Source: Thermoplasmata archaeon
GTDB taxonomy: Archaea; Thermoplasmatota; Thermoplasmata; Lutacidiplasmatales; SKW197
DNA: 64,000 nt
Reading direction: 5' to 3'
Assembly (NCBI GenBank): GCA_038874435.1
Contig: JAVZCK010000006.1
Span: forward strand, 37,332 to 101,331
Shown here: piece after piece, positions 7,923 through 60,917 of the stretch
Numbering within the stretch: the stretch's first letter is position 1
Layout: every line of letters begins with the position of its first letter
The notes under the pieces: generated by a model
Databases searched by the model: none
What the model was told of the DNA's origin: nothing
What the model saw: only the letters and a program-made list of their open reading frames with translations
Translations under genes and position numbers: made by a program

Positions 7923-7923
7923 C

Positions 7924-40244: not shown

Positions 40245-40248
40245 TTGA

Positions 40249-41298
40249 TCATTCCTCCCTTAGAATAATCTGGTGCTTTAGTTTCGTGTAGATTGCATAG
40301 TTTACCTCAACTGCATTCTCAATGTAGTGCCTGATTAGGGGTGCGTTTTCTCGCTTGAAATTCTGGATTTCCTCAGTCACAGTTATATCAAAACCGTCTG
40401 AGCCAGCACCTGAACCAAAGGCAACAGCGAGAATTCTGTCCCCTGGCTTTGCAACATCAAGCACAGAACATAGACCAAGCATTACTGCTCCTGAATACGT
40501 GTTGCCGATGTAGGGTGTAAGCAAGCCCTGGTTTATCTGTTCGTCCTTGAAACCAAGCATTTTGCCTGCCCTTCTTGGAAATCTGCCATTGGGCTGATGG
40601 AAAATTGCATACTGGTAATCCTCTGGTTTCGTGCCCTGCATCTCCATCAATTTTTTGGCACAGGTGAGCACATGTCTGAAGTATGCTGGCTCTCCTGTAA
40701 ATCTGCCACCATGACTGGGATACATCTGTCCCTCTCTTCTCCAGAAGTCAGGTGTGTCTGTTGTAAAAGAGTATGTGCGATTGATTTCCGCAATCACCTT
40801 CTCATTGCCGATGAGGATTGCAGCACCACCAGCACTTGCAGTATATTCTAGTGGGTCTCCAGGTGCTCCCTGAGATGTGTCAGCACCTATTGCAAGTCCA
40901 TACTTTATCATCCCTGATTTCACAAGGCCCATGCAGGTCTGGATGCCTGCAGTCCCTGCCTTGCAGGCAAATTCGTAGTCAGCAGCAGTTAAGTCAGGCG
41001 TTGCACCTATTGCCTCTGCAACAACGGTGGCAGTGGGCTTCACAGCATAGGGATGCGACTCTGAGCCACAATAGATTGCTCCAATTTCTTTCGGATTAAT
41101 TGAAACTCTTTTCAGTGCGTTCCTTGCCGCTGTCACCGCAATTGTGATTGTGTCTTCATCCGGGCCTGGCACTGATTTGGCTTTCACACCTAAGCTCTCG
41201 CCGTAGCTCTTTCCATCGATTCCCCACACCGCTCCAATCTCTGCAGGTGTTATCCTGTAGCGGGGCACATAGCCACCATAACTTACTATTCCTACCAT
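40249..41298 (-). CDS. hydroxymethylglutaryl-CoA synthase (archaeal type)
   Basis: '[16 protein letters not shown]', catalytic Cys '[12 protein letters not shown]', 'HQPNGRFP'. 349 aa. Forms the canonical archaeal HMGCS-thiolase-DUF35 operon. Confidence 0.85.
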
Positions 41299-42461: not shown

Positions 42462-43019
42462 ATGAAAGCTTTGGATTACAAAGACAGTGAGATAAAAACT
42501 AGAGGAGTGAATATAAAAAATCTCCTTGATACTATGAAATTTAAACGGGGAAGTGAGGGCCTCGCTGAGCTAAATAAACATCTATTAAATAACTATGGAC
42601 TTGACCTCTCCCATGTGATTGAAAAGGACTGGTACCCTCTGTGGTACGAATTTGCTGTGCTTGAAACCCTTTGCTCACAACTCCACGGTGACCCATACAA
42701 GAATGCAGAGGTAATAGGGGTGAGAGGTGCAGAAGACATTGGAATTCTTAAGTTTTTTGTAAAGTTTGTTATGAATCCAAACGAACTAGCTGCGAAATCA
42801 CAGAGTGATTGGAGAAATTTCTACGATGGTGGAAAATTTGTCATTCACAAGAATGTGCCAGGAGAGATAATCTGCGAAATTTGTGATTTTCCATACTTTG
42901 AACTTTACGCCCACAATATCAAAGGATTCTTGAAAGGAGTGCTCAAGCTGGGCGGTGCAAAAAACCCAAGGGTGGAAATTATAGAAAATTACAAATACAG
43001 ATGCACCTGGGAGCAGTAA
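42462..43019 (+). CDS. hypothetical protein (possibly V4R-like)
   Basis: 185 aa. 'CEICDFPYFELYAHNIKGFLKGVLKLGG' and C-terminal 'YRCTWE' are vaguely V4R-like. Weak. Confidence 0.3.
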   Translation: MKALDYKDSEIKTRGVNIKNLLDTMKFKRGSEGLAELNKHLLNNYGLDLSHVIEKDWYPLWYEFAVLETLCSQLHGDPYKNAEVIGVRGAEDIGILKFFVKFVMNPNELAAKSQSDWRNFYDGGKFVIHKNVPGEIICEICDFPYFELYAHNIKGFLKGVLKLGGAKNPRVEIIENYKYRCTWEQ

Positions 43020-43936
43020 AAGGCATGGATGGAAGAGACACCAATCAGAAGGAAGAATACATTTCCTAGAATTACACTTATAAATAAACCAGCGGTGATT
43101 GGAATTATGAATGGAATCTGTGGCGTCACCCAAACCTCTTTTCTGCCGAGCCGTTCAAGTTCTGCGACCTCTACAGCAATGTTTTCGTCCTCGTCCTTAT
43201 CTGGAGTGTATTTTGTAACAATTTTTCCGTTCACAGGATGTTCCATGAGCCAAACGAATTTTTTCTTTACATCACACACTGGCATTTTATAGCCAAAAAA
43301 TGCATGAGGAATCTTAGCGTTGCCCTTTACTGCATTGTAAAGGAAGAGCACTAGGGGATAAAAAATGAACCAGAACACTGCATTCAGAAGAACTGTAAGG
43401 GCAAAAGGAAACATAGTTTCAAACATGGAAATGTTTGTTTCTGCAAGCGGGAAATTGAGAAAACGAGGGTATGTGGGAAAAAGAAGAGCTATGAGCATGA
43501 GGGCTTTAGCATCTGCACCACCGTGAATTATGTTGAGCTCATAGAAAACTCGCATGAGCACCTGCATTGCAACAATGCCCATCAGAATTCCATTTTCAGG
43601 AGAAAACCAGTAAAAGCCAATCAAGAATGTGAGGGCTGTGAGCAGGATGTAAAGCGTCATTTCAACATAGATTTCCGTCGTTTCTGAAATGCCAAACCGT
43701 TCGAGGGAGATGTATGGTGTGAAGAAAAGAGCTATTGCAAGTAAACCAAGAAGATAAGCAATACCCGAGCTTGAGATTAAAATGAGATGGCTAAAAAGAA
43801 GTAGAGAACCAATTGCACCACCAATCAGCCAGACATAGTTTTCTATCTGACGTGTGCGATAGTCTGAGTAGGAAGCGATGCTAAACAAACCCAAAGCAAC
43901 AATCACACGGGTTATGTCAATGTATTCCAAGAGCAT
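42989..43936 (-). CDS. type IV prepilin/preflagellin peptidase (A24 family, PibD/FlaK/EppA-like) with C-terminal extension
   Basis: First catalytic Asp 'IASYSDYRTRQIEN'. Second Asp in 'IIHGGADAKALMLIALL' (GGxDxK signature). Polytopic membrane topology. Confidence 0.7.
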   Translation of the reverse strand: MLLEYIDITRVIVALGLFSIASYSDYRTRQIENYVWLIGGAIGSLLLFSHLILISSSGIAYLLGLLAIALFFTPYISLERFGISETTEIYVEMTLYILLTALTFLIGFYWFSPENGILMGIVAMQVLMRVFYELNIIHGGADAKALMLIALLFPTYPRFLNFPLAETNISMFETMFPFALTVLLNAVFWFIFYPLVLFLYNAVKGNAKIPHAFFGYKMPVCDVKKKFVWLMEHPVNGKIVTKYTPDKDEDENIAVEVAELERLGRKEVWVTPQIPFIIPITAGLFISVILGNVFFLLIGVSSIHAFYCSQVHLYL

Positions 43937-46611: not shown

Positions 46612-47814
46612 TTAACCATCTAGAAGTCGTTTCTCACCCTCGATTTTCTTTATTTCAGTTATGTCCTGGGTTACTTCAAGACAGCCAAGATATTCTCCTT
46701 GTTTATTTCTCACTGGGAAATACCTGATATAAATCTGTCTGCCCTTCAGATTAATCCAGAACTCTGCTTTATCCCGTTTACCTGCCTTGAAGTCGTTAAT
46801 AATCGCGTTTACCTTTTCCAAACTCTTCTGGGGATGGCAGTTCTGGACTTTTCTTCCAATAACTGCCTTGGTCCTTGGAAAGATTCGGTCTTTAGTGTCG
46901 TTGTAATACCTTACAGTGTCCTCTTTGTCAACAAAAGAAATGTCAACTGGTAGAGCGTTCAGAATTGCATCCAGTTCTTCCACAGATAATTTTCCTGTAT
47001 CCAGTGGTACTTCTCCATCCACACATAGTGCTTTAAGATTTCTATGCTCTTCTTTTGTCCCTACAACAGTTTGACCTACACCAAGAACAGTGCTCGGTGT
47101 GAAGCAGCAGTATCCCAGTTCATCAAATTCTTTCCTTGCCTCCTTCCATTCCTCCTCTGAAATGACTCGCAGAGCCGTTGGGAAAAGGATGTTGTTCTCT
47201 TTGTAAAAGTGGGACTGCAAATTTTCCAGTAGTTTGAGTGTAGTTTCCTGAAGTTTTGCTACATCCACATCATTGCTCTCTGCAATTGCATAAATCTCCT
47301 TTTTTATCTCTCTTATCATATCATGTTCCATCCACATCACTTGCGGTGGCTCGGTAATCCCGTGCCTTTCAAGGTAGGGAAAGAGTGCATTCTCCTCTCG
47401 CACATAATGGCTTTCGGAACTTTTCAGATGCTCAATCACATGCTCCAGTTTCTCATGTTCACTGCCTCCCCAATCCCTTGCTATCTGCAATAACTCACCG
47501 GCAAATCCAAGCAGCATTTCGTGTTCTGTGAGAAGAATTTTCAGAGGATGTCCATCTGGCACATCCATTTTACCACCTTGCAATTCATTGAAAATTTTAA
47601 GATGGAGGTCGCACAATTTTCTTATTTCCTCTCTGGGAATGCCTTCTTTAATCAGCTCTTCCTCCGCTCTCGCAATTTCCAAGGGTGTCACTTGAGAGAG
47701 AAACTCCCTGAATTCAGCCTTCACATTCTCTGGCGTTGCACCTTCATGCAATTTCTTCAGAATGCCCTTCAAAATCTCCTTTCTTCTGGTCTCCTCTTCC
47801 ATTTTATTCACCAT
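46612..47814 (-). CDS. DUF438 + hemerythrin-like (HHE) + PAS domain sensor protein (COG2461-type)
   Basis: N-terminal 'KEILKGILKKLHEGATPENVKAEF' (DUF438). His/Glu-rich metal-binding helices (HLKIF, HEMLLGFAGE, HVIEHL...H, WMEHDMIRE). C-terminal PAS 'ISFVDKEDTVRYYNDTKDRIFPR...KGRQIYIRYFPVRNKQGEYLGCLEVTQDIT'. Confidence 0.7.
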   Translation of the reverse strand: MVNKMEEETRRKEILKGILKKLHEGATPENVKAEFREFLSQVTPLEIARAEEELIKEGIPREEIRKLCDLHLKIFNELQGGKMDVPDGHPLKILLTEHEMLLGFAGELLQIARDWGGSEHEKLEHVIEHLKSSESHYVREENALFPYLERHGITEPPQVMWMEHDMIREIKKEIYAIAESNDVDVAKLQETTLKLLENLQSHFYKENNILFPTALRVISEEEWKEARKEFDELGYCCFTPSTVLGVGQTVVGTKEEHRNLKALCVDGEVPLDTGKLSVEELDAILNALPVDISFVDKEDTVRYYNDTKDRIFPRTKAVIGRKVQNCHPQKSLEKVNAIINDFKAGKRDKAEFWINLKGRQIYIRYFPVRNKQGEYLGCLEVTQDITEIKKIEGEKRLLDG

Positions 47815-47924: not shown

Positions 47925-50900
47925 TCAGATTTTTCTTTTTCTGAGGGTTACCACTGCAAACACTGTTACCAACATTGGTATCAGAATATATCCTATAGAG
48001 AATTCGCTGACTGGCTGGATTGTTACTGGGAAACTTCCGTTTTCTGGAAGTGTTGCAGTGTTGTTTCCGCTATCCCATGCCTGGATATAGTAATAGAGGG
48101 GGCCTGGTGAACTCTGAGCTGGAATCTGTCCGTGCCATGTACCATTGGTGTTGTTGCCTGCAATCAAAGACATAGCAATCGCTATTGTGGTATCACTTCC
48201 AACTGGTTGGTAGAACACTTTTACATCCGTTATGGGTTCCGCACCAGCTGTTACATTGGCATAAATGTCGATTGGATCTCCTACATTCGCAGCGGTTACT
48301 GGTGTGTGGCTGATGAGAATTGTACCTGCGGGAACTATATTTATATACACCACCTTTGCGTCATTTCCAGTAGCTATATCTGCGCCGAGTTCTGTATTTA
48401 CCATGATTTTGTATCTTCCTGTTTCGGTGAAGTTGTATATCCAATCTAGGTTTACCTCCGCATTTTGAGGCATTGTTATCCCTGTGGGCTTCGTCTGATT
48501 GAATATCTCTGTCAGTACTGTGTTTTTCTTCCCTATTACCTGCACATCGTCAAGATACCAACCCAGGTAATTGACCATGCTATCTGCACCGAAATTAAAT
48601 CTCACTTTAACATTCGAATTGCCAACCCATCTTGTAAGGTTTACTGTCACTTCAACCCATGTTTGGACTCTTCCTGAAAATGCTTTCTTTCCACCGAGTG
48701 GATTGCCCCATGAGGAGGAAATTGTTCCGTTGTAATAGGGTTGAGGATTAACATTTGGCTCGTCTACCTGCATCCATGTGCTTCCATCAGTTGTTATTTC
48801 TATTAACCAACCATCATACACCGTGTAAGTTCCAGTTTCCATGTCCACCCACTGCCAGTACTTCATAACAACATAGTCGTAACCCGAGAGGTCCATTGCT
48901 GGTGAGATCAGCGCTGCTGAATATGCATTTGCGTAATTGCCAGCTAGATTTGTGCCCCAGACATTTGAGCCACTGTGTGGTGTTGGTGCACCTGTGCCTG
49001 ATGGCGTCCCTCTTGCCCATTGGTCCACTGCATTGCCACCTGTATTCTGGTGTGTCCAGCCCTTGTCTATCTCAAAGTCATCCACAAAGACTGTGTCCTC
49101 CGTGCCTGGTAGAACTTCCCAGATTCTGCATCTCACATCAAAAGAATCCTGGGTGTTTGGTCCATAGTTTTTGATTTTCGCACTCACTGTTCGTTCGCCA
49201 GTATAGTAGGCGTTCTCATTTATCGGAGAGATAATACTCTCAACGCCTACATCATCAAGGGTTTTGAATACCCTGACTGTAGCAGTGCCATCAAGTCCTG
49301 TGTCGTCTATTGCCACAACTCTGATTCTGTAGGTTCCAACAGGATAGGATGTGAGGTCAAGTGTGTAGCTGTTTCCAGTGGTGCTTCCAATGTAACTCCA
49401 GGATTGCCCATCGTCAGGGCTGAGGTAAATGTCAAACTTCACGATTGTCCTCGTATCGCTGGCACTCCATGTTACATTAACAATATCATAAAAGCCAGTA
49501 TTTTCCTCTGGAGCGGTGATAGTCACCGTGGGCTTTGAGCCACCAAGCAGGTAGGAAAGCGAGCGATCCATGAGAGTTGCCCTTATACTCCTTGAGGAGA
49601 TGTCCTCAAACGCAAAGGCATAGTAAACCACTCCATGACTCCCTAGATATCTAACACCAGCAGTGTTTCCACTGGAGTACATTAGGAAGGCATAGGCACC
49701 TGTGCGGGCAGAAACTCTATCTGGATAATAACCCCCAATTACATCCTGCAAACTTGCACTGATTCCATCGCCTATTGGGTCACCAGCAACACCATTGATT
49801 GCATAACTCCCATCATTGTCCGCTGAATAGGTGGCATGAAGGTAGGTCTGGTACCATGTAGCATTGTTGTACTGGGTTCCATCGGTAGCACAGAGGTCCC
49901 ATCCGATATCCTGCCCTGAAATTACAAGTTTTCCTCCTCCATCAAGATAACTCCCGAGCAAACTGCGGTCATCTGCAGAGAGCTGTGGATAGCAATCACT
50001 TGTGTGCCATACCACTGCCTTAAATTGCTGAAGGTATGCCAAGGTGGGCATGCCCTGTTTTGCCTTGCTCCAGATTCCATAGCTCCAACCCGCGTCTCCA
50101 ACTGCGTCAGTATAGTACTTGTCAAATATGAGATAGGACCCACCATCTATTATAAGAATGCTAGCTAAGGTTGTTGTGAACTTATAATGCAGACCGCCAT
50201 TCGTGTCTATACCCACGTTACCTACAATGTCCCTACCTTCCAGATCAAAAACATAGGTTGTGTTGAGTTCCAGACCGTATAACCTTATTCTATGAACGAA
50301 CGAAAGAACACTCGAATAAACTGTAAGTGTCGGAGAGTATACTCCATACTTAACTTTAGAAGTTGTTGGTTCGTTAGTTGTCCATGTAATCTCAGCGTAG
50401 TTTCCCGCGATGACCTCAACAGATACATTTGTTATTACAGGGGGTCTTCCATCCACATTTGCGTATGCGAAAACAGGAGAATGTGGTGCGGATTGATCGA
50501 TATATTTTGCAACAATCCTATCTCCATCTGAAATTTGTAAAACCCCATTAGAATTCGTATGAGAAATAGAAATGCTCCCTTCAAAAATATGGCAACCCGA
50601 AGAGAGTTCCGTAAGAATTACTGTTTCACCATTTGGTTCTGTAGTGGAATTTACCACACCAGTAAGAAGCCCAGAAGCATCTAGATCTATAACTCGTAGT
50701 TTTATCATCCCCTCGAGAGAATACCAATATTTGTCCATATGTATTTCTCCCTGTGTGTCACTTAACCCTCCAGTGACTACTAGTGCAAAATCTTGAGGAC
50801 CAAAAGGAACATTTACTGCAGATATCCTTACCCTATAAAGCCCTACTTCTGGCGTGTTCAAATAGACACACTCTTCTACGTTAGTGTTATCAGATATCCC

Positions 50901-52853
50901 TCCCGGAATTGATTGCCCATTTGCAAACACATTTCCTAAATATTGGGTCCCATTGGGTGCAACCACGATAAGGTCTAAGTCGTTTACAATCGCTCTAGAA
51001 GAGAGTGGCTCGCCAGGATAATCCGTCCATGCTAGAGTTATTTTCAACGGAACTGAAGAATTGGAAACATAGTATAGATATTCCACACAATCTCCAGTCA
51101 AAAGTCCGTCTCTGAAATCGACTACTCGCAACCTCTCAGTATCTCCATTGAAATACAATACTCTGTCTAGATTTATTATTCCCCATCCTATGTCGTTGTT
51201 AGGCACGGAGAACGCGGCAAATGGGACACCACTATTTATCAATGCGGCCTTTATCAGAGCCGCAGAAGGAGTAAAACCATTGCTGCTCACCTTCGTGCCG
51301 GTTGGATACCAACCTTCGGTAAAGTACTGCCTCACAAGTGCAGCACCACCTGCAGCTGTAGGAGTTGCCATCGAAGTGCCACTCATTGTAATGTATCCTG
51401 AGTTGTTTGAATGCAAATTCCCATCTGAGTCTGCAGACACAATATATCTACCTGGTGCGCATATCGTGGGTTTAAGGCGTCCATCTGCAGTTGGCCCCCT
51501 GCTCGAAAAGTCCGCAATCTCCGTCCCGTAATGAGAAGTCGCTCCTACGGTAACAATGTTCTTTGCAGTACCTGGGCTTCCGACTGTGTTTGGACCTGAG
51601 CCACTATTACCAGCTGCAAAAAAGATAAGCATGTCCTTGTGATACCACATAAACTCATCTGTCTGCATGGATTCGCTTGTATAGTTGTTACTTGAAGAAC
51701 CCCAGGAGTTTGAGTGCAATCTGGCCCCATCATTGTATGCCCAAAGGAAAAGAGTATTAAGGTCTGGAGGTAATACGAGTACATCATTATATCCAGAGAC
51801 ATTACCGATGTCCGCAAATGAGAGCTTTGCACTCGGAGCTATACCTATTCCATTTAGATTAGTTCCACCCACATAGCTATTATTTCCAGCTACCGTACAT
51901 GCTACATGCGTTCCATGACCAGAATAATCGCTGTCACTCTCATTTGCGTTCACATGATAGTTGACTATTTTCCTATGCTGGAGGTCTGGAGGTAGAGAAC
52001 CCGGAGGATTAGAGTACTGGACTGGGAAGTGACTTGGATCCCTAAATGCTTCGTGGTCCCAATCAATACCAGTATCACTTACTCCAATTATCTGGTCATC
52101 ACCATAAAGCCCATGATTCCAGATTGGCGTGTTTCCGCTTGTGCCTGACTGAATCACGCCTGCTGAAATTGAGTTAGATATTTTCATCTCGCTCCGCTTT
52201 TCTATCCATCGCACATCTGGCAAAAATGCAATTTTCTCAGCAAGTTTTGAGTTCATCTCCGCTATTATGGTTCCACCATCTCCGTACATTGATGGTGCTA
52301 CATCTTTCACAATGCCTCCATTCTTTCTGATTGCCATAGCCACTCCATAAATGTTATCGAATACCAGAATTTTGAGCGTTTGAGAAGGTGTATCGTATAC
52401 ACTATTGTCTATCTTATAATATGGTTGATAAATTCCCCACCACTGCACAAACGGAAGATTTGCAATTTCCTGCATCTGGGAAAAAGTTGCTTTTACAGTA
52501 TAGGCATTGTCGGGTATGTATGAAAGAATCTGACAGTGTTTAGAAAGCTGGACTTTCCAGTTTTCTTTTATTGGACCCTTCATTTGGACTATGTAAACTC
52601 CACTAACCCATCCAGGATAGGAAGATATCCTCAGATGGGAAGGGATCTCTGGTTCTCCTGCAGAGGTGGAAAATATAATCTTCTTCAGAAAAATCTGGTC
52701 GCTCGCATATCCACTCTGAACTTTATCATTTGCCTTCACCTCTTGGCCTGGCGTCAGTGGAACTATAAGAGATGCCATCACAATCGCAATCACCACAAAT
52801 AGGATTTTCATCTTGTTGCCCCCAGTTTTCATAATTCTACCATAGTGCTTCAT
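47925..52853 (-). CDS. giant secreted subtilisin-like serine protease (S8) with multiple accessory domains and C-terminal TM anchor
   Basis: Catalytic triad blocks 'IIGVSDTGIDWDHEAF' (Asp), 'YSGHGTHVACTVAG' (His), 'MSGTSMATPTAAGGAAL' (Ser). Signal anchor near the N-terminus (MKILFVVIAIVMASLIV). 1642 aa. C-terminal 'SEFSIGYILIPMLVTVFAVVTLRKRKI'. Confidence 0.9.
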   Translation of the reverse strand: MKHYGRIMKTGGNKMKILFVVIAIVMASLIVPLTPGQEVKANDKVQSGYASDQIFLKKIIFSTSAGEPEIPSHLRISSYPGWVSGVYIVQMKGPIKENWKVQLSKHCQILSYIPDNAYTVKATFSQMQEIANLPFVQWWGIYQPYYKIDNSVYDTPSQTLKILVFDNIYGVAMAIRKNGGIVKDVAPSMYGDGGTIIAEMNSKLAEKIAFLPDVRWIEKRSEMKISNSISAGVIQSGTSGNTPIWNHGLYGDDQIIGVSDTGIDWDHEAFRDPSHFPVQYSNPPGSLPPDLQHRKIVNYHVNANESDSDYSGHGTHVACTVAGNNSYVGGTNLNGIGIAPSAKLSFADIGNVSGYNDVLVLPPDLNTLFLWAYNDGARLHSNSWGSSSNNYTSESMQTDEFMWYHKDMLIFFAAGNSGSGPNTVGSPGTAKNIVTVGATSHYGTEIADFSSRGPTADGRLKPTICAPGRYIVSADSDGNLHSNNSGYITMSGTSMATPTAAGGAALVRQYFTEGWYPTGTKVSSNGFTPSAALIKAALINSGVPFAAFSVPNNDIGWGIINLDRVLYFNGDTERLRVVDFRDGLLTGDCVEYLYYVSNSSVPLKITLAWTDYPGEPLSSRAIVNDLDLIVVAPNGTQYLGNVFANGQSIPGGISDNTNVEECVYLNTPEVGLYRVRISAVNVPFGPQDFALVVTGGLSDTQGEIHMDKYWYSLEGMIKLRVIDLDASGLLTGVVNSTTEPNGETVILTELSSGCHIFEGSISISHTNSNGVLQISDGDRIVAKYIDQSAPHSPVFAYANVDGRPPVITNVSVEVIAGNYAEITWTTNEPTTSKVKYGVYSPTLTVYSSVLSFVHRIRLYGLELNTTYVFDLEGRDIVGNVGIDTNGGLHYKFTTTLASILIIDGGSYLIFDKYYTDAVGDAGWSYGIWSKAKQGMPTLAYLQQFKAVVWHTSDCYPQLSADDRSLLGSYLDGGGKLVISGQDIGWDLCATDGTQYNNATWYQTYLHATYSADNDGSYAINGVAGDPIGDGISASLQDVIGGYYPDRVSARTGAYAFLMYSSGNTAGVRYLGSHGVVYYAFAFEDISSRSIRATLMDRSLSYLLGGSKPTVTITAPEENTGFYDIVNVTWSASDTRTIVKFDIYLSPDDGQSWSYIGSTTGNSYTLDLTSYPVGTYRIRVVAIDDTGLDGTATVRVFKTLDDVGVESIISPINENAYYTGERTVSAKIKNYGPNTQDSFDVRCRIWEVLPGTEDTVFVDDFEIDKGWTHQNTGGNAVDQWARGTPSGTGAPTPHSGSNVWGTNLAGNYANAYSAALISPAMDLSGYDYVVMKYWQWVDMETGTYTVYDGWLIEITTDGSTWMQVDEPNVNPQPYYNGTISSSWGNPLGGKKAFSGRVQTWVEVTVNLTRWVGNSNVKVRFNFGADSMVNYLGWYLDDVQVIGKKNTVLTEIFNQTKPTGITMPQNAEVNLDWIYNFTETGRYKIMVNTELGADIATGNDAKVVYINIVPAGTILISHTPVTAANVGDPIDIYANVTAGAEPITDVKVFYQPVGSDTTIAIAMSLIAGNNTNGTWHGQIPAQSSPGPLYYYIQAWDSGNNTATLPENGSFPVTIQPVSEFSIGYILIPMLVTVFAVVTLRKRKI

Positions 52854-52945
52854 GGCTTCGCTCTATTTATACTTATCTGGTTTGGTTGTAGGAAAAGATA
52901 TATAGATGAACTAGTTATGAGGTTGAGAACAGGAATTACTGAGGT

Positions 52946-55900
52946 ATGGCTATGGCTGAAAAAACGGATGCAAAGCTGAAGTTATCAGATAGAGTAATAA
53001 TGTGGTGCAACGAGCATGGAACTACAGTGCTTTACCTAGCAACAATATTCTTCATCGGATTGCTGATGCGGGTGTACTTTGCAACTGAACTTATAACACA
53101 GCATGGGCCTCTGTATCTCTACTCAGGAGGCTCGGACTCCTACTACCACTCCAGAGTAATTGAATACATTGTTGCCAATAAACACCACCTTGTTCTCGAC
53201 ACAATGTTAAACTATCCCACTGGTGCAATTAACCCAAGGGCACCATTGTTTGACTGGATGGTTGCTGTACTTGGCACTGTTCTCGCTCCGTTATTCGGAG
53301 GAGATGCGGTGCTTGCTGCCGCCTATGTGCTGGTTTACATTGCACCTATCTGGGGCTCCCTATGCATCTTCCCACTCTACTTTCTTACCAAAGACATTTT
53401 TGGAAGAAAAACTGCTCTGCTCTCAGTGTTCCTTCTCACATTCATGGAGGCACAGGTGGAGAGGAGCATTGCTACTTTTGGTAACTATCTCCCATTCTAC
53501 ATGTTCATGGTACTCACAATACTCTTCTTCTATGTTCGAACTATAAAAATGGTAGGAAGCCATAGATGGGTTAGTTCCTGGCAAAGCAGAGAGGAAATTG
53601 GAAAAGGACTGAAAGCATTTTTCAGAAATGAGAAAAGAGCTCTGCTCTATAGCGTGATGACTGGCGTGGCTTTCGGCGCTACCTCCATGGCATGGCAGGG
53701 TTTCACATATATGGAAGCAATCTTGCTCATCTATCTCTTTGCTCAGATTCTCCTCAATCATATTAGAAAGGTTGACTCTACAGGCGTATATATTGTTACG
53801 ATGGTAGCAATGGGCGTTGGTTTCCTCCTCGCATTTCCATACTACTATGGTGACCAACTCATCCCAATCTGGTTTGATGTGCCTGTTTACCTTTACATTG
53901 GAGCTGCTGTACTTGGATTTATCTTCGTATCCTCCAGAGATGTTCCATGGATTATTGTGTTCCCTGCAGTAGGTGTCCTCCTCGGTGTCATAGCCCTCTC
54001 TGTTTATTTAATAAACCCTGGATATTTCGAAATAATCGTCTCAGGACAGGGTTACTTCGTCAAAACCAAAGTTTATTCCACTGTTGCAGAGGCGCAGGCA
54101 CCTGACTTCAGTCGGGTGGTTCTGGCATTTGGTGCGGCAACTACATTTCTTGGTGTGCTTGGACTTGGATATCTCCTTTATAAAACCTACAAATCCTGGC
54201 GAATGGACTATATCTTCTTCGCAACATTCAGCACAATGTCAGTGTACCTTGCATCTACTGCAGGTAAGTTCACATTCCTCGGCTCTCCAATGTTTTCGGT
54301 GCTTTCTGCATGGTTCATTCTCCTCCTTATTAACATAGCCAATTTCTCAGAGATGCAAAAGACATTTGCGGGCACAATTGGTGGAGGACTCTGGAATGCT
54401 CTGAAAAAAAGTGTGAAGGTCACCCACGTAGTTGTGGTCCTCTTCATAGCATTCCTTGTAATTTTCCCGAATATCTGGTTTGCGGTGGATGCTTCCATAC
54501 CGTATGAAACCAAGCGAAAGTTTGATAAGCAGGTCTATGAGGCCATGCCAGATTTTGCAAAGCCCACAGATTATGACAAAGTTAATGGTTCTTACAAGTA
54601 TTTTGGTGCCTTTGGCTTCTCTGTGCCTTTGCCGTCATCTTACTGGCCCGATGCCTACAAGTGGCTTTCCAAGCAGGATATAAATGATACGCCAGATAAA
54701 AGGCCTGCCTTCGTAAGCTGGTGGGACTATGGATTTGAGGCCGTAGATGTAGGACATCATCCAACTGTAGCAGATAACTTCCAGAATGGAATTCCAATAG
54801 CAGGAAATTTCCTAATGGCTCAAAATGAAAGCCAGGGTATCTCCCTCATGATTGCACACCTTCTCTATGCATGGTACTACAAGGACAAAACCAAGTGTGA
54901 AGAAATATTCAAAGCAATTGAGGATGCGGGTGTGGACATAGCACCAGTAAAGGCACGATTGAATGACCCAAAAGGCACAGTGAAAATTGTGTTAGACAAC
55001 CCAAGCGTCTTCGGTCCTAGATCGGCCGACCTGAATGTTCACAATGCATACTATACCTGGATGTCTGTCTATCTTCTAAGCAATTTAAACTTGAGACAGC
55101 TATCAGAACTTTACAATGTGGTTATGGACATTACTGGCAACAGAATATATTACTTTGCAGTTGACTCAAGGTTGTTCCCCTTCTCAGGGACCAATACAGG
55201 CATCTTCTATGCTCCTGCCAAACTATCAGACCAACGAATGAAGGGCAGAGGCGAGTCCGTACCCTATGATTATTACAATCTGAAAGCAATCAGTGAGTAT
55301 GGTGGAGAATATGAGCTTGACGAAATTCCTGCTGGGGTTAGAATTGTTAACTATAAGATAGAATACAAGGATATGTTCTACAATTCTATGCTATACAGAA
55401 TTTATGTAGGTTATAGTGGAAAGGACATTGGTATGGGCGATGGAATTCCTTCACTCACTTCTGGGTTCGAAAATTATCAGAGAATGCCTGGCTGGAACAT
55501 GACGCATTTTAGAGTAGTGTATCTCACTGCCTACTGGAACCCGTACAAGGACTATCAGAATCACACCGATGCATGGAGAGCAATAAACTATGAGGAGGCC
55601 TACCAGAAGCAACTTAGTGGCGAAGGTGTTGTAGATCTAAATTCCAGAAGCAGCATAGGTCAGAGCGTGGCGATGATAAAGTACTTCCCGGGTGCGTTCT
55701 TCAATGGAACTTTGAAATTACCAGATGGTAGGATTGCTAAAGGACTCAGAATCACTGTGCAGGATGAATACGGGATTCCACATATGAGCACTATAACAGG
55801 GGATGATGGTAAGTATAACCTTATTTTACCATTTGGAAACATAAGCATTTTAGTAACTACTGGTGGCGAACTAAACAAGCAATCCATGACAGAGCGTATC

Positions 55901-58900
55901 CAGGTAGCAAGAATGACACTAAACATCTCCCAGGATGCGGCATACAGAAAGAATGTAGACAGTGACAGAGATGGGGTCTGGGATTATATTATCAATCGAG
56001 ACATTGAGGTTGCACCTGCAACAATCAAAGGCACAGTTTACTGGGATAATGACAACAGCGGGAGTTATTCCTCAACTTCGGATACTGTGATTCCCAATGC
56101 AAAGGTCTACTTTGTAAGAAATGAGACAAATGATACTTACACTGTGACCACGGATGCAAGTGGCACCTACATTATCAATAATATCACTCCTGGAAGCTAC
56201 AATGTCTCCGCAGTGGTTGACACCTACAAGACGATAACTCTGACCACAGAGGGAAAACCTAACGAACAGGTAACAGCAGACATAGGAATACAACCTGGCA
56301 AAATAGATGGAAATGTCTCGCTTGGAGAAAAAAAGATGGCTAATGTGACTGTAGCGCTAAAGCGTGAAAATGGCACAGTTACTACCACAACTTCAAATGA
56401 AACAGGCGAATTTGAATTTGAGCACCTACTGCCCGGAAATTACACCCTCTACATAGATGACCCTGAGTATGTGTCAGAGAAGATTGAAATCACACTTAAT
56501 CAAGGTGAGCGTTCAACGCAAGCGCTCCAGATATTCGAAGCAGCAAAAGTGAAAGGAAAGCTGAAAATCGGAAATGCACCAGCAAGCTATGCAAGCGTGA
56601 GATTCATAAACCTAGACAACAGGAAATTGAGTGATACTGTAGTTGCTAATGCCAATGGAGAGTTCAATCTTTCTCTACCAACAGGTTTCATGTATTCTGT
56701 TTATGCTCTCATGATGAAAGGCAATGACAGATACACCCAGTTTACAAGCTTTATTTTGGAAAACGACATGGAAATTGTTCTAAACCTTCAAAAGGCAGTG
56801 AAAATCTATGGAGAGGTGAAGTCAAAACCTACAAATGAAATCATGTATGGCTACACGATGCAGATAGACAGGGGCAATGAAAAACTCTGGTTCTTCACAA
56901 ATTACTCTGGTTATTATGAAATTTATCTACCACCAGGCACTTACGAGTTGAAGAATCTTGCATGGATTACGGGCGTAAATTGGACTTATCTTGAGAAACG
57001 AACAATCTACGCAGACACAGAATGGAATGTTGCAGTAGTTGATGGTGATGCCTACAACGGAAGGGTTTACTACGATGCGAATGAAAACGGTGTACACGAT
57101 GCAGGCGAGGAAATTGCAAATGCTAGAGTATTCCTCTACGATGAAAATAAAAACAGCATTTACACGAAAACAGGTGATGACGGAATGTTCCGTGCCAATA
57201 TACCAAAAGATAGAACATACACAATGAAAGTGTTGGCTGATGAATTCAATCCACGGGAATTCTCACCAATGAAGTTTGCAGAACTTCCAGGAGAAATTGC
57301 ACTCATCCCAGTGAATGTCTCAATTTTAGGCAACATAAAATTCCTGAATTTCGTAGATGAAAACATTTCTGTATCGCTCACTGGTGGGATGGGCAACAAA
57401 ACATATCACATAAACACCAGCCAAAGCACGAATTTCACACTTACAGTAGCACCTGGCAATTACAATGTCCGAATTACATATCAAACCCAGGAAGTAAATG
57501 AAAATGACACTAGATATGTTGTTGAGGGGAACACAGAATTTAACACAAACTTAAACAGAAAAGTAAATCTCACTGTTAAAAAAGAAGTCAAGATAACTGC
57601 AAATCTTTCTCTCATTGATGGCACAACTCTCAACGCTGTAGTTAAACTTACGAACCGCTCAAATGAAATGACAGTGGATACGACAGCTGACGAGTTAAAA
57701 GACGGAGAATTTGTGCCGGTTGGAGAATGGAATGTGGAATGCATAGGAGAAAGAGGAGAACTCCATTATGCATCTATTACCCAGATTGAGGTTACAAAAC
57801 CAGCACATTTCGACTTCACCCTTTATCCTGCTCATAGAGTCAATGTGAAAGTAGAGCATGACGGAGAGGGTGTAAGTTATATCCAACTGATGGCAACTGT
57901 TGATGAAATTACTCTTCAGAAAACTACGGACATAGGCGGGAATGCAGAATTCACAGTGCCTGCAAACAAATCAGTGAAATTCTGGGTAGATTACACAGGC
58001 ACTGAAACTATTTCTAGCTTAAACAGAACTGTTCACTACGAAGGCAACAACACCACAGTAGCAAATGCTGACAAGACGGTGATTGTTGAAGTCACAAAGG
58101 AAATCCATAGCAGAATTCTTTCTGGAAACGTGGTTTACGAAGGGCAGAGGATGCTATCTGGCTATGTGGAATTCGTGTCAGATGCCACCGCACAAAAGTT
58201 TAGAACAGAAATTATAAACAGCAGTTTCAGCATTGAACTGCCTGCAGACACATATAATGTGTATGCATACGCACAAGATTACGCAATGGACTATGTGAAT
58301 TGCACAAAGGTTCTTGTTAAGGAAGACAGTGAAACCCAACTCACTCTTGCGCTTGTGAAAGGTTACCGACTCAACGTACATGTAACAACTGAAACAAGTG
58401 CAGAAAAGACCTTGAAGATAACCACGCCTGAATGGAAATATGAGCTTGCTACCCTCGACACCGAATTCAGTGTTATTTTGCCTGGTGGTGAATATAAGCT
58501 AAGGACATCGCAATTCGGCTATGACAACGGAATGCGAGTTGAATACGCTGACGAGAAAACGGTGACAATCTACAACACCACAACTGCGGTCTATCTTTCA
58601 CCTCAGAAAGTTGTGATTCGTGCCCTTGAAATCACATGGAATGAAATAGAACATGCCGTGATGGACCAGAACGATACCCGAGTGTTCAGTTTGATTGTTA
58701 AAAATCTAGGAAATGTAGAAGACAAGGTATCACTCACGGGCTCTCCTGTGGATTGGAGATTCAATTTCAGCGATAACAACTTTGCTATCGGTTATGGCTC
58801 TGGAAATAACACAAAGAGAATAGAGGTCTATGTGACTACACCAGATGATGCTAAAGTAAACCATCCACCAGTAATAATTACTGCCATCTCCATGCTAGAT

Positions 58901-59455
58901 TCGTCGGTCTCAACATCCACTCAAATCAGAATAGAGGTTTTGGAAAAACGTGCCTGTGCATTGCTTGAAGGAACTAATTATAAGTTTGAAAACGGTTCTC
59001 TTGCATTCGACATTCAGGTAAAGAACACCGGAAATACTCTGGACACATTCCACTTAACAATTATTAATGCCAATGAAATCGCTGCACTTGGCTGGACACC
59101 AAAAATTTATGTGGGTGAACGTGAGGTAAACAAAACTAGCGAAATAGAGCCGAATGCTACAACCACACTTACTATTCGCCTTACACCAGGACAGGGTGCG
59201 ATGCCGATAGTTACAAGAGCTTCTGTTAAACTCTATGCAATTTCTGAAACAAAGAAAGGTGATACAGCAACGGCCGAATATAGAATCCCAGTTTCAAACT
59301 TTACAATGAGTGCTGATGAATTTTCTGCAGCAGGAGAGAGGATTTCAATGAAGCCAGAAACCGTGGATTACTCTCCATACATTTGGGCAACCGCAATAAT
59401 AATAATCGTGTTGCTTGCAATTCTGGTTTACTACAGATGGGGGGTGGTAAGGTGA
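52946..59455 (+). CDS. aglB: archaeal oligosaccharyltransferase AglB (STT3 family), giant 2169-aa form with ~1400-aa C-terminal repeat extension
   Basis: The N-terminal 13-TM region carries the acceptor-binding 'FVSWWDYGFEAV' (WWDYG motif) after the last TM. The C-terminal region contains repeated CarboxypepD_reg/Cna-B-like modules ('GTVYWDNDNSGSY...', 'GNVSLGEKKMANVTVALKRENGTVTTTTSNETGEFEFEHLLPGNYTLY', 'GRVYYDANENGVHDAGEEIANARVFLYDEN...') and ends in a TM anchor 'IWATAIIIIVLLAILVYY'. Confidence 0.9.
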   Translation: MAMAEKTDAKLKLSDRVIMWCNEHGTTVLYLATIFFIGLLMRVYFATELITQHGPLYLYSGGSDSYYHSRVIEYIVANKHHLVLDTMLNYPTGAINPRAPLFDWMVAVLGTVLAPLFGGDAVLAAAYVLVYIAPIWGSLCIFPLYFLTKDIFGRKTALLSVFLLTFMEAQVERSIATFGNYLPFYMFMVLTILFFYVRTIKMVGSHRWVSSWQSREEIGKGLKAFFRNEKRALLYSVMTGVAFGATSMAWQGFTYMEAILLIYLFAQILLNHIRKVDSTGVYIVTMVAMGVGFLLAFPYYYGDQLIPIWFDVPVYLYIGAAVLGFIFVSSRDVPWIIVFPAVGVLLGVIALSVYLINPGYFEIIVSGQGYFVKTKVYSTVAEAQAPDFSRVVLAFGAATTFLGVLGLGYLLYKTYKSWRMDYIFFATFSTMSVYLASTAGKFTFLGSPMFSVLSAWFILLLINIANFSEMQKTFAGTIGGGLWNALKKSVKVTHVVVVLFIAFLVIFPNIWFAVDASIPYETKRKFDKQVYEAMPDFAKPTDYDKVNGSYKYFGAFGFSVPLPSSYWPDAYKWLSKQDINDTPDKRPAFVSWWDYGFEAVDVGHHPTVADNFQNGIPIAGNFLMAQNESQGISLMIAHLLYAWYYKDKTKCEEIFKAIEDAGVDIAPVKARLNDPKGTVKIVLDNPSVFGPRSADLNVHNAYYTWMSVYLLSNLNLRQLSELYNVVMDITGNRIYYFAVDSRLFPFSGTNTGIFYAPAKLSDQRMKGRGESVPYDYYNLKAISEYGGEYELDEIPAGVRIVNYKIEYKDMFYNSMLYRIYVGYSGKDIGMGDGIPSLTSGFENYQRMPGWNMTHFRVVYLTAYWNPYKDYQNHTDAWRAINYEEAYQKQLSGEGVVDLNSRSSIGQSVAMIKYFPGAFFNGTLKLPDGRIAKGLRITVQDEYGIPHMSTITGDDGKYNLILPFGNISILVTTGGELNKQSMTERIQVARMTLNISQDAAYRKNVDSDRDGVWDYIINRDIEVAPATIKGTVYWDNDNSGSYSSTSDTVIPNAKVYFVRNETNDTYTVTTDASGTYIINNITPGSYNVSAVVDTYKTITLTTEGKPNEQVTADIGIQPGKIDGNVSLGEKKMANVTVALKRENGTVTTTTSNETGEFEFEHLLPGNYTLYIDDPEYVSEKIEITLNQGERSTQALQIFEAAKVKGKLKIGNAPASYASVRFINLDNRKLSDTVVANANGEFNLSLPTGFMYSVYALMMKGNDRYTQFTSFILENDMEIVLNLQKAVKIYGEVKSKPTNEIMYGYTMQIDRGNEKLWFFTNYSGYYEIYLPPGTYELKNLAWITGVNWTYLEKRTIYADTEWNVAVVDGDAYNGRVYYDANENGVHDAGEEIANARVFLYDENKNSIYTKTGDDGMFRANIPKDRTYTMKVLADEFNPREFSPMKFAELPGEIALIPVNVSILGNIKFLNFVDENISVSLTGGMGNKTYHINTSQSTNFTLTVAPGNYNVRITYQTQEVNENDTRYVVEGNTEFNTNLNRKVNLTVKKEVKITANLSLIDGTTLNAVVKLTNRSNEMTVDTTADELKDGEFVPVGEWNVECIGERGELHYASITQIEVTKPAHFDFTLYPAHRVNVKVEHDGEGVSYIQLMATVDEITLQKTTDIGGNAEFTVPANKSVKFWVDYTGTETISSLNRTVHYEGNNTTVANADKTVIVEVTKEIHSRILSGNVVYEGQRMLSGYVEFVSDATAQKFRTEIINSSFSIELPADTYNVYAYAQDYAMDYVNCTKVLVKEDSETQLTLALVKGYRLNVHVTTETSAEKTLKITTPEWKYELATLDTEFSVILPGGEYKLRTSQFGYDNGMRVEYADEKTVTIYNTTTAVYLSPQKVVIRALEITWNEIEHAVMDQNDTRVFSLIVKNLGNVEDKVSLTGSPVDWRFNFSDNNFAIGYGSGNNTKRIEVYVTTPDDAKVNHPPVIITAISMLDSSVSTSTQIRIEVLEKRACALLEGTNYKFENGSLAFDIQVKNTGNTLDTFHLTIINANEIAALGWTPKIYVGEREVNKTSEIEPNATTTLTIRLTPGQGAMPIVTRASVKLYAISETKKGDTATAEYRIPVSNFTMSADEFSAAGERISMKPETVDYSPYIWATAIIIIVLLAILVYYRWGVVR

Positions 59456-60240
59456 AGCCTGTTGCACTTCTTTCGATTTCCATGCTTTTGACAGCTCTTC
59501 TTTTCCCTCTATCTTCAGTAACACATGCAGCAGCCCAGGGCTATGAGCCTGTGAGAGTAGTTATCTCTGGCCCAGACACTGTAGGTGTTAAAGAGGTTCG
59601 CACCTACTACATCAACATCACAGGTGGTCCAGCAACACTGGGTGGGAATTATTCTTACAAGGCAGTGATAAAGGGAGAAAATACTACTGGAGCCTATGTC
59701 ACTCCTGCAGAAGGCAACAACACGGAAGGCAATTTTGAAGTAAATGTTACAATGCCTGAAAAGGCACAGCGACTCACGCTTGAGGTAAATGCCACCTCCT
59801 CTCACGAAGGCATAGACAAGTCGGTGGTAAAGGCATTCACCATAGAAGTAGTAAACCCATACACCTTCAAAGCTACAATAAAGAACTCTGGAAACATTGA
59901 TGTCTATGGTTGCCAGATTGATGTGCTGATTGACGGAGTTAAAATTACAGAATTTAAGGTTGACATTCCAAAGAACTCCACATATACCTTTGAATATAAC
60001 TACACTGGCAAAATAGAACAACCAGGGTGGCACACAGCAAAATTCGTGATAAAGAATGGATACGGGATGCTCTACTTCGAAAATGCCAGTGAAGAAATTT
60101 CGTTCTCCTTCTACAAGGCGCCACCCCCATTACCAAAATGGCTTCCGCTTGCAATTGCCCTTATCCTTATCCCTGTGGTAAGTATTATAATCCTCCTCCT
60201 TTTAGGAAGGAGAAAAAAAGGAAGTGGTAAAAAATGGTAG
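59437..60240 (+). CDS. secreted Ig-like/beta-sandwich surface protein with C-terminal TM anchor and basic tail
   Basis: Signal 'VKPVALLSISMLLTALLFPLSSVTHAAA'. C-terminal 'PPPLPKWLPLAIALILIPVVSIIILLLLGRRKKGSGKKW'. The start overlaps the AglB stop (an ATG at 59437, or a GTG at 59452 in the GTGA overlap). Confidence 0.5.
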   Translation: MGGGKVKPVALLSISMLLTALLFPLSSVTHAAAQGYEPVRVVISGPDTVGVKEVRTYYINITGGPATLGGNYSYKAVIKGENTTGAYVTPAEGNNTEGNFEVNVTMPEKAQRLTLEVNATSSHEGIDKSVVKAFTIEVVNPYTFKATIKNSGNIDVYGCQIDVLIDGVKITEFKVDIPKNSTYTFEYNYTGKIEQPGWHTAKFVIKNGYGMLYFENASEEISFSFYKAPPPLPKWLPLAIALILIPVVSIIILLLLGRRKKGSGKKW

Positions 60241-60398
60241 AAATCGCGTGTGTCTCCTGTGGAACAAGATCGCTCCAGAAAGGTGCGGTGAAATTCAAGT
60301 GTCCGGCTTGCGGAAAGGTAGAAATCTGGCGATGTGAAGAATGTAGAAACCAGAGCAGGGCATACACATGCAGAGAATGTGGATTTACTGGACCTTGA
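60234..60398 (+). CDS. small Zn-ribbon protein (COG2888-like, translation-associated), 54 aa; absent from the ORF track
   Basis: Translation is MVEIACVSCGTRSLQKGAVKFKCPACGKVEIWRCEECRNQSRAYTCRECGFTGP. It has four CxxC pairs. ATGGTAG overlap with the upstream stop. It lies directly upstream of aEF-1beta, as in many archaeal genomes. Confidence 0.6.
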   Translation: MVEIACVSCGTRSLQKGAVKFKCPACGKVEIWRCEECRNQSRAYTCRECGFTGP

Positions 60399-60407
60399 GG
60401 TGAAAAT

Positions 60408-60674
60408 ATGGGAAATGTATCAGTAATATATCGGGTGCTTCCCCAAGATGTGGAAGTAAACATCGAGAAAATAATGGAAGAAGTAAAAAATGTGATGCCA
60501 AAGGATGTTACCCTGAGAGGCATGCAAGTGAAGGATGTGGCCTTCGGACTCAGAGAGGTACTCGTTGCTGTAGTTATGAAAGATGAAGGAGGAAAAAGCG
60601 ACGAAGTTGAAAAATTACTGAGTTCCATTCCTGGCGTTGGCTCTGTAGATGTTCTAGACCTTACCCTTGTGTGA
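60408..60674 (+). CDS. ef1b: translation elongation factor aEF-1 beta
   Basis: 88 aa. 'VIYRVLPQDVEVNIEKIMEEVK...VAFGLREVLVAVVMKDEGGKSDEVEKLLSSIPGVGSVDV' matches the archaeal EF-1beta length and pattern. RBS 'gaggtgaaaatATG'. Confidence 0.85.
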   Translation: MGNVSVIYRVLPQDVEVNIEKIMEEVKNVMPKDVTLRGMQVKDVAFGLREVLVAVVMKDEGGKSDEVEKLLSSIPGVGSVDVLDLTLV

Positions 60675-60683
60675 GGTGAAAAA

Positions 60684-60917
60684 ATGGGCAGGATTAGGCA
60701 GACATATATAAAAAGGGTGGCTATTGAACTGATTTCCAAACATGGAGATCAATTCACTGGCGATTTTTATCACAATAGGGAAAAGGTGAAAGAGCTTACA
60801 GACCTTGTAGTCAGGGATGGAGACAAAGAAAAAATTCTTTACAAGCAAATGCTAAACAGAATTGCTGGCTATGTGACAAGATACAAAAAGCGAAAGAGAC
60901 ACAGCGTTCTCGGCTGA
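60684..60917 (+). CDS. rps17e: 30S ribosomal protein S17e
   Basis: 'MGRIRQTYIKRVAIELISKHGDQFTGDFYHNREKV...NRIAGYVTRYKKR' is the S17e signature (MGR.R...IKR.A..L......FT.DF..NK...NRIAGY.TR). RBS 'gaggtgaaaaaATG'. Confidence 0.85.
   Translation: MGRIRQTYIKRVAIELISKHGDQFTGDFYHNREKVKELTDLVVRDGDKEKILYKQMLNRIAGYVTRYKKRKRHSVLG

Follow-up and report, generated by a model that had tools for sequence, protein, structure and literature searches.

What is the 2169-residue product encoded at positions 52946..59455 of this stretch of DNA: a working oligosaccharyltransferase (OST) of unusual build, a dead relative of one, or two genes joined by mistake? The stretch analysed, here called the window, comprises 64,000 nucleotides from a Thermoplasmata archaeon (assembly GCA_038874435.1, contig JAVZCK010000006.1), and the gene in question, which we call giant AglB after the archaeal OST AglB, is an uninterrupted + strand open reading frame (ORF) from ATG to TGA. 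An earlier reading, made from the letters alone (the sequence-only reading), had described an AglB extended by a very long chain of beta-sandwich modules, rich in N-x-S/T sequons and closed by a terminal anchor, and this description was borne out. The answer that we favour, at a probability of roughly 0.6, is that giant AglB would be the N-glycosylation OST of this archaeon, equipped with a glycan-coated arch and a partner protein, its active site being remodelled but functional in a sub-lineage that we name NYL after the residues at its second DXD motif. The catalytic part would transfer a dolichol-linked glycan to asparagine on the outer face of the membrane.

Giant AglB and its family

The gene, the spacer in front of it and the two domains of its catalytic part are laid out as follows.

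52854..52945, no strand: divergent intergenic spacer between giant AglB and an S8 protease gene, 92 bp, with AT-rich TATA-like boxes (putative promoter) and GAGGT just 5' of the AglB ATG
52946..59455, + strand: giant AglB gene, 2169 amino acids (aa), intact ORF
52946..54550, + strand: AglB membrane domain, residues 1 to ~535, placed by AlphaFold helices, hydropathy, alignment with AglB-L of Archaeoglobus fulgidus (AfAglB-L) and Foldseek
54551..55657, + strand: AglB external globular domain, residues ~536-904, including WWDYG, ADNFQNG and the IFYAPAKLSD block

A complete AglB is contained in residues 1 to ~905: the membrane domain has the STT3 fold, and the external globular domain bears WWDYG. 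The NCBIfam profile TIGR04154 (archaeo_STT3, the archaeosortase A-associated STT3 of archaea) matches residues 29-634 (E 5.4e-67, 226.8 bits, profile positions 2-579 of 831), and the closest solved relative by sequence (phmmer) is AfAglB-L (3WAJ, E 1.4e-13). For residues 1-960, AlphaFold was run on an alignment with 56 homologues, its rows being full-length search hits; the model has a mean predicted local distance difference test (pLDDT) score of 89.8 and a predicted template modelling (pTM) score of 0.85. Foldseek comparison of this model with the PDB returned AfAglB-L (7E9S) first (E 3.3e-23), followed by human STT3A/B, yeast Stt3 and PglB, and the top 19 matches were all AglB, STT3 or PglB. 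Hydropathy gives 11 strongly hydrophobic segments in the membrane domain, and the helix pattern fits the STT3/AglB topology of 13 transmembrane (TM) helices in both the model and the AfAglB alignment. The predicted layout, a 13-TM N-terminal domain followed by a C-terminal globular domain, is that of the GT-C fold. The external globular domain is the best conserved part of the protein, 45% identical to distant relatives. The sequence-only reading had ended the core at ~750 aa and given the extension ~1400 aa; conservation carries the AglB part to ~905, which leaves an extension of ~1230 aa.

Could the long reading frame be an assembly or frameshift artefact that joins AglB to a downstream adhesin gene? 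The sequence-only reading had itself named this as the event that would undo it. Nothing was found in favour of it. The architecture of 2084-2443 aa recurs in more than 100 independent assemblies (NCBI, JGI, ENA, Logan), more than 100 full-length homologues are conserved continuously across the junction, and positions of the junction region such as T861, G916, G921, T937 and D940 are invariant in 57/57 sequences. Misassembly and frameshift are excluded by this recurrence, and the chance that an artefact underlies the gene is negligible. An identical protein (P0001) occurs in a second Thermoplasmata metagenome-assembled genome (GCA_038880615.1, contig JAVZRJ010000004.1). The NCBI gene call starts two codons later, at 52952, and yields 2167 aa.

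The size that the sequence-only reading took as unusual for an AglB turned out to be the norm of a phylum-wide family rather than an oddity of one genome. A protein search recovered 420 relatives (protein clusters) at E<=1e-10; all counts out of 120 given below refer to the best 120 of them, which are nearly all 2084-2443 aa long, align over 94-100% of the query and share ~30% identity with it. GTDB, scanned with one genome per species, contains at least 566 stretches that match; the 79 best loci come from 79 different genomes, among which are members of the lineages Thermoplasmata, Methanomassiliicoccales, DHVE2 group, Ca. Lutacidiplasma, Ca. Halarchaeoplasma and Ca. Natronoplasma. Between WWDYG and the C-terminus lies a median of 1590 aa (standard deviation 26), and each of the 13 modules of the extension is present with 0-7% gaps, even though identity to the query falls to 16-20% in the middle modules. 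As the copy number of beta-sandwich repeat arrays normally varies, a module number fixed in this way marks a defined, ancient architecture. Judging from these comparisons, the giant form is the standard AglB in much of the phylum Thermoplasmatota. No description of this architecture was found in the searchable literature, whose cover of subscription journals is partial. A subgroup of 2340-2443 aa (P0034, P0042, P0047, P0052, P0053 and others) has WWDYG at ~750-830 instead of ~580-600, with ~200 extra aa in the N-terminal or membrane part and an extension of unchanged length.

Catalytic motifs and the NYL clade

Three residues of AfAglB are direct ligands of the catalytic metal, D47 in the first DXD motif and D161 and H163 in the second; E360 of the TIXE motif binds it through water, and R426 lies close to the phosphate site (PMC8342417). 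The corresponding places in giant AglB, together with the motifs of its globular domain, are these.

53135..53137, + strand: D64 in GGSDS, catalytic Asp of the first DXD, aligned with AfAglB D47, invariant in 120/120 homologues
53483..53491, + strand: N180-Y181-L182 at the place of the second DXD, aligned with AfAglB D161-H162-H163
54080..54091, + strand: TVAE, residues 379-382, the TIXE motif of external loop 5 with catalytic E382, aligned with AfAglB TIAE/E360
54266..54268, + strand: K441 at the place of the Arg near the lipid-phosphate site, aligned with AfAglB R426, in the segment 'GQNRFAYY'
54719-54733, + strand: WWDYG, residues 592-596, in 120/120 homologues
54770-54790, + strand: ADNFQNG, in the external globular domain
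55202-55231, + strand: IFYAPAKLSD block at the DK/MI position, in the external globular domain

T379 and E382 of the TIXE motif are invariant across the family, Q613 matches AfAglB Q571, and Q613 and WWDYG are invariant or nearly so family-wide. Four of six canonical motifs are present. Of the catalytic motifs whose absence would, by the sequence-only reading, have spoken against it, WWDYG is there in every one of the 120 homologues, and a DK/MI motif could not be confirmed in its canonical form. Where the motif would be expected on the kinked helix, after the strand IRYFAVD, the sequence reads I753-F-Y-A756-P757-A-K759-L760-S-D, which fits neither the DK consensus DxxKxxx(M/I) nor the MI consensus MxxIxxx(I/V/W); in this near-invariant block, I753, A756, P757 and L760 never vary and K759 is shared by 95/120.

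The second DXD motif, whose loss the sequence-only reading did not mention, is D-H-D in 101 of the 120 homologues and N-Y-L in 18, and in these alignments it is an unusually plastic element of the giant AglB family. The NYL sequences are monophyletic in a neighbour-joining tree, with the giant AglB studied here among them, and they differ from the rest at several further positions. The residue at 441 is Lys in 16/16 NYL sequences and Arg in 40/40 DHD sequences; G446 replaces Ala and M105 replaces Ser as other fixed differences. An acidic residue, E172 in giant AglB, stands at position 172 in 83% of the clade vs 7% elsewhere, at the start of the external loop whose end is N-Y-L, which makes it a candidate substitute metal ligand. 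A second acidic residue gained in the clade, E229, was considered for the same role and rejected, as the topology places it on the cytoplasmic side. D64, E382, WWDYG and Q613 are invariant within the clade.

Other genomes of the family carry second motifs of the forms DWD, NHD, VHD, IHD and GYD, with D64, E382 and WWDYG fixed throughout. D-W-D is found at seven loci (L022, L032, L043, L046, L049, L050, L078), five of which are labelled DHVE2 group.

Several results weigh against a functional OST with a defined arch. Two of the three direct metal ligands of AfAglB, D161 and H163, are N180 and L182 here, and Leu cannot bind a metal. Neither phmmer, profile search nor column statistics found a canonical DK or MI motif. 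The TIGR04154 score of 226.8 bits stays below the curated cut-off of 450 bits, so that the protein is a relative and not a member of that family, and the Pfam profile PF02516 (STT3) scores 20.5 bits, under its gathering cut-off of 24.5 bits; a precomputed PF02516 match exists for most DHD-type homologues and is missing from several of the NYL type. For the extension, the inter-domain geometry of the model is unreliable (pTM 0.46).

Part of this would be explained if the NYL-type AglB were a dead enzyme retained as a large glycosylated surface or envelope protein, with another AglB elsewhere carrying out glycosylation. The loss of both second-DXD positions (N180, L182), the exchange of the phosphate-site Arg for Lys and the scores under the STT3 and TIGR04154 curated cut-offs all agree with such a pseudoenzyme. 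Against it, D64, E382, WWDYG and Q613 are invariant in a clade whose extensions are ~27% identical, and the substitutions occur in concert and are fixed throughout the clade instead of being scattered. Identity within the clade is 0.48 for the NYL TM core vs 0.50 for the DHD one, and 0.27 vs 0.28 for the extension; the NYL core is therefore conserved like the DHD core, and the relaxation expected of a decaying pseudoenzyme is not seen, which favours an active, remodelled enzyme. Further members of the family also vary at the second motif (DWD, NHD, VHD, GYD). A search that covered only the 64-kb window and, for the 79 loci, the 10-kb flanks of AglB found no second STT3-like ORF, and, as a weak point, none of the 79 best loci, out of at least 566, shares its genome with another. 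We consider a dead enzyme unlikely. The NYL-type AglB is probably active, its triad of metal, arginine and phosphate having been remodelled as a unit: in this sub-lineage, the metal and donor site would have changed while the enzyme stayed functional, with acidic 172 as the possible replacement ligand.

The extension, its sequons and the downstream partner

Downstream of the globular domain, the gene encodes a chain of modules and a last membrane helix, and a second gene follows directly.

55658..58582, + strand: eleven CarboxypepD_reg/Cna-B/transthyretin-like beta-sandwich modules, residues ~905-1879
58583..59245, + strand: two CARDB-like modules, residues 1880-2100, with NxGN motifs at 1920 and 2027 and invariant N/G/N columns
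59372..59452, + strand: C-terminal (14th) TM helix, residues 2143-2161, hydropathy 2.47, and short tail YYRWGVVR
59452..60240, + strand: conserved partner gene, 262 aa, with signal peptide, Ig-like and CARDB region, C-terminal TM helix and basic tail

The AlphaFold model of residues 905-2104 is all beta (mean pLDDT 88.4) and contains 13 modules, a count based on the secondary structure of the model (DSSP segmentation) and on the family consensus; self-repeat detection with jackhmmer gave only ~10 weak repeats. The extension scores 152.6 bits with CarboxypepD_reg and 63.4 bits with SdrD_B in Pfam. The sequence-only reading had counted more than ten CarboxypepD_reg/Cna-B-like modules and a terminal TM anchor, and both hold: eleven of the 13 modules are of that type, the other two being CARDB-like, and a C-terminal TM helix is present in 114/117 homologues. 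Module 2, an SdrD_B-like domain, bears the DxDxDG-type motif DSDRDG (residues 1005-1010, window 55958-55975), and its family consensus DxDxDGxxDY suggests a calcium site. A comparable D/N-rich loop occurs in module 6.

How is this chain placed at the cell surface? Since 13 TM helices put the globular domain outside, the 14th should bring the C-terminus back to the cytoplasm, and the extension is inferred to be tethered to the membrane at both ends. The periplasm-spanning stalk proposed by the sequence-only reading is thus unlikely, as a chain that re-enters the membrane fits an arch tied at both ends better than a free stalk. One form of the stalk proposal is a ruler, in which the last helix would sit in an outer layer or second membrane and the chain would set the width of a periplasm-like space. 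It draws on the strictly conserved number and length of the modules and on the conservation of the C-terminal helix. By the positive-inside rule, a C-terminal helix followed by basic residues marks insertion into the cytoplasmic membrane. This usual signature is found here and in the tails of the homologues, and the family spans lineages with presumably different envelopes; we regard a ruler as improbable. The arch that we propose would be a glycan-coated structure of defined size, with 13 modules, a contour of ~50 nm and both ends in the membrane.

Sequons were counted against the expectation from 500 composition shuffles, with the following results.

AglB extension (1231 aa): 38 observed, 15.6 expected, z 6.4
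Downstream partner: 9 observed, 1.9 expected, z 5.4
S8 protease: 21 observed, 16.1 expected, z 1.3
Beta-helix protein: 16 observed, 13.9 expected, z 0.7

The sequon density that the sequence-only reading had noticed in the extension modules is thus real, with N-x-S/T sites at ~2.4 times expectation, and the shuffles gave no enrichment in the AglB membrane and globular domains. Among 117 homologues, the extensions hold a median of 21 sequons vs 11.5 expected, with z>2 in 88%. Their positions are mostly unconserved: of 385 sequon-bearing alignment columns, 314 are occupied in <10% of sequences and only five reach 40%, which suggests selection for a general dense glycan coat over particular sites. 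A self-glycosylated scaffold, the other role that had been proposed for the extension, would be a reasonable interpretation of such a chain. The sequon at residues 964-966 ('PFGNIS', window 55836-55844) is among the few that are positionally conserved (24/43 sequences); it lies in module 1, which abuts the catalytic globular domain and, with 38% identity to distant relatives, is conserved better than any other module.

The partner gene was absent from the sequence-only reading. Its GTG start in the NCBI call overlaps the AglB TGA by 4 nucleotides (nt), and an alternative ATG lies at 59437. A hidden Markov model (HMM) of the partner family finds it directly downstream of AglB in 58/66 loci having at least 700 nt of downstream sequence, and in seven of the eight HMM-negative loci, a + strand ORF of ~280-400 aa (stop-to-stop) either begins at the AglB stop or overlaps it. 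Among 51 partners analysed, the overlap is 4 nt in 26, a signal-like N-terminus occurs in 48 and a C-terminal TM helix in 50, with a median sequon z of 3.2. The partner is thus a companion gene conserved with AglB and translationally coupled to it. It matches Pfam PF07705 (CARDB) with 29.8 bits (cut-off 22.7 bits), as do 41/42 partner homologues, and in the PDB it matches CARDB-like domains that have no assigned function (3IDU, 2KL6). Profile-profile comparison of the partner family with AglB modules 12-13 (hhalign) is collinear (probability 83.5%, E 8.3e-6), and it is this comparison only that suggests paralogy, as the partner HMM gives no direct AglB match. The partner may be a free-standing copy of the C-terminal end of AglB. 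It would associate with the C-terminal modules or the TM helix of AglB, and arch and partner together would serve as a structural frame, keeping the enzyme organised at the cell surface.

Genomic setting and known systems

The genes on either side of giant AglB and its partner are listed here.

47925..52853, - strand: S8 subtilase, 1642 aa, membrane-anchored; Peptidase_S8 (PF00082) 161.9 bits, above its cut-off; Asp/His/Ser triad motifs DTGID at 260, HGTH at 313, GTSMA at 492
60234-60398, + strand: aS21, directly 3' of the partner
60408-60674, + strand: aEF-1beta, after aS21
60684-60917, + strand: S17e, after aEF-1beta

The S8 subtilase, which from its motifs looks active, had been presented by the sequence-only reading as divergently paired with AglB. 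The gene and its 92-bp spacer are real; synteny gives no sign of a functional meaning. One could suppose a protease-glycosyltransferase pair, co-regulated from the shared spacer and acting on the same surface substrates, in keeping with the head-to-head layout across 92 bp and with two membrane-anchored, extracellular products. An S8 homologue, however, stands beside AglB only in L001, whose AglB is 85% identical, and L081, whose AglB is identical; it is missing in L002 (73%) and in the other 77 loci, and the S8 protein lacks sequon enrichment (z 1.3). Such a pairing is very improbable, and S8 as a conserved partner is ruled out by its restriction to AglBs at least 85% identical.

The surface-protein island that the sequence-only reading had drawn around AglB is enriched in sequons at the AglB extension and the partner; at its other members it is not, with z 1.3 for S8, z 0.7 for the beta-helix protein and one sequon in the gene at 46612-47814, which encodes a DUF438/hemerythrin/PAS protein. 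The neighbours of AglB in other lineages are purD, gatD, pyrF and a gene for a NusA-like KH protein. The setting of AglB is core genome and not a variable surface-protein island. No other glycosylation genes were found in the 64-kb window.

The following observations concern the wider window. A 184-aa minus-strand ORF at 60185-60739 is probably spurious, as three plus-strand translation genes occupy 60234-60917. A gene for an archaeal type IV prepilin/preflagellin peptidase (Arc_PepC_II, Peptidase_A24) at 42989-43936 (-) adjoins that of the beta-helix protein, and a thiolase gene and an HMG-CoA-synthase-like gene lie upstream at 39075-41298 (-). At 7089-10563 (-), a ThiF (E1-like) gene adjoins that of an 879-aa JAB/MPN-domain protein; the most extreme composition of the window falls at 8001-10000 (GC skew -0.37, AT skew -0.37), and the JAB protein may accordingly contain a long stretch of repeats or of low complexity. 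A set of domains that is unusual for an archaeon occurs in a 711-aa protein at 540-2675 (+): three PPC pre-peptidase domains, one bacterial TSP3 repeat and a transglutaminase-elicitor domain.

In usual descriptions, AglB is a single-subunit enzyme of ~600-1000 residues, and two DXD motifs, TIXE, WWDYG and DK/MI are preserved across all domains of life (PMC3703281, PMC8342417). It follows that a whole archaeal phylum uses an AglB more than twice this size, with a length-locked extracellular domain chain, a second anchor and a co-translated partner. The NCBI name of giant AglB and of many relatives is 'carboxypeptidase regulatory-like domain-containing protein', which refers to neither STT3 nor AglB, whereas JGI names many members oligosaccharyltransferase. 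Annotation-based surveys that rely on the NCBI names would thus miss the enzyme and score Thermoplasmatota genomes as lacking an OST, hiding their capacity for N-glycosylation. The NYL clade further offers a natural experiment on catalysis, in which two of three direct protein ligands of the metal and the phosphate-site Arg change together while the rest stays strongly constrained, so that the role of the second DXD becomes testable between close homologues.

The closest known systems include AfAglB-L (PDB 3WAJ, 5GMY, 7E9S) and other long archaeal AglBs, which share the GT-C/STT3 fold (Foldseek E 3.3e-23). AfAglB-L aligns with giant AglB at the Asp of the first DXD, at the Glu of TIXE, at WWDYG and at the Gln in the segment that follows it, and its external globular domain likewise ends in beta-rich units. 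It has 868 aa compared with 2169 here, the 13 modules, the second anchor and the dedicated partner being extra in giant AglB; its second DXD D161-H-H163 and R426 face N-Y-L and Lys, and the DK-motif region reads E<insert>KxxxM/I/P in AfAglB-L and other long AglBs but IFYAPAKLSD here. Methanomassiliicoccales, the DHVE2 group and other Thermoplasmatota possess giant AglBs of the DHD type (for instance P0006 and P0009-P0084), which have the same length, the same order of 13 modules, the anchor and the partner, are ~35% identical in the membrane core, and keep D-H-D (or D-W-D) and the phosphate-site Arg.

The extension recalls NOMO, a eukaryotic subunit of the BOS complex (PDB 9C7V), which likewise has about a dozen transthyretin/CarboxypepD_reg-like domains on the non-cytoplasmic side, one terminal TM helix and a short tail. 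NOMO 9C7V is the best PDB match of the family profile (E 1.1e-31), although structure comparison does not single it out, and Pfam NOMO_5th scores just above its cut-off (28.1 vs 27 bits). NOMO is a free-standing chain of ~12 domains and a C-terminal TM helix that works with nicalin and TMEM147, whereas the array here is fused to AglB, which places it outside the NOMO family. The Cna-B fold also builds Gram-positive pilins and MSCRAMM B-repeats (SpaA, BcpA, SdrD), but these are wall-anchored adhesins or pilus shafts with variable repeat number, unlike the enzyme-fused array of fixed module number in giant AglB.

The eukaryotic OST subunits ribophorin I/Ost1, OST48/Wbp1 and Swp1 are type-I proteins with beta-rich non-cytoplasmic domains that accompany STT3, much as the partner would accompany AglB; no sequence or profile similarity was found between the partner and the eukaryotic OST lumenal subunits. 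More tentatively, and here we have real doubt, the NYL-clade protein could be an active OST without a second DXD, its metal bound differently or absent, and the two-protein surface machine of arch and single-pass partner could be the prokaryotic counterpart of the multi-subunit eukaryotic enzyme. Set beside the OSTs described so far, giant AglB is apparently an undescribed variant of a known enzyme, with a sub-clade that does without a motif regarded as universal.

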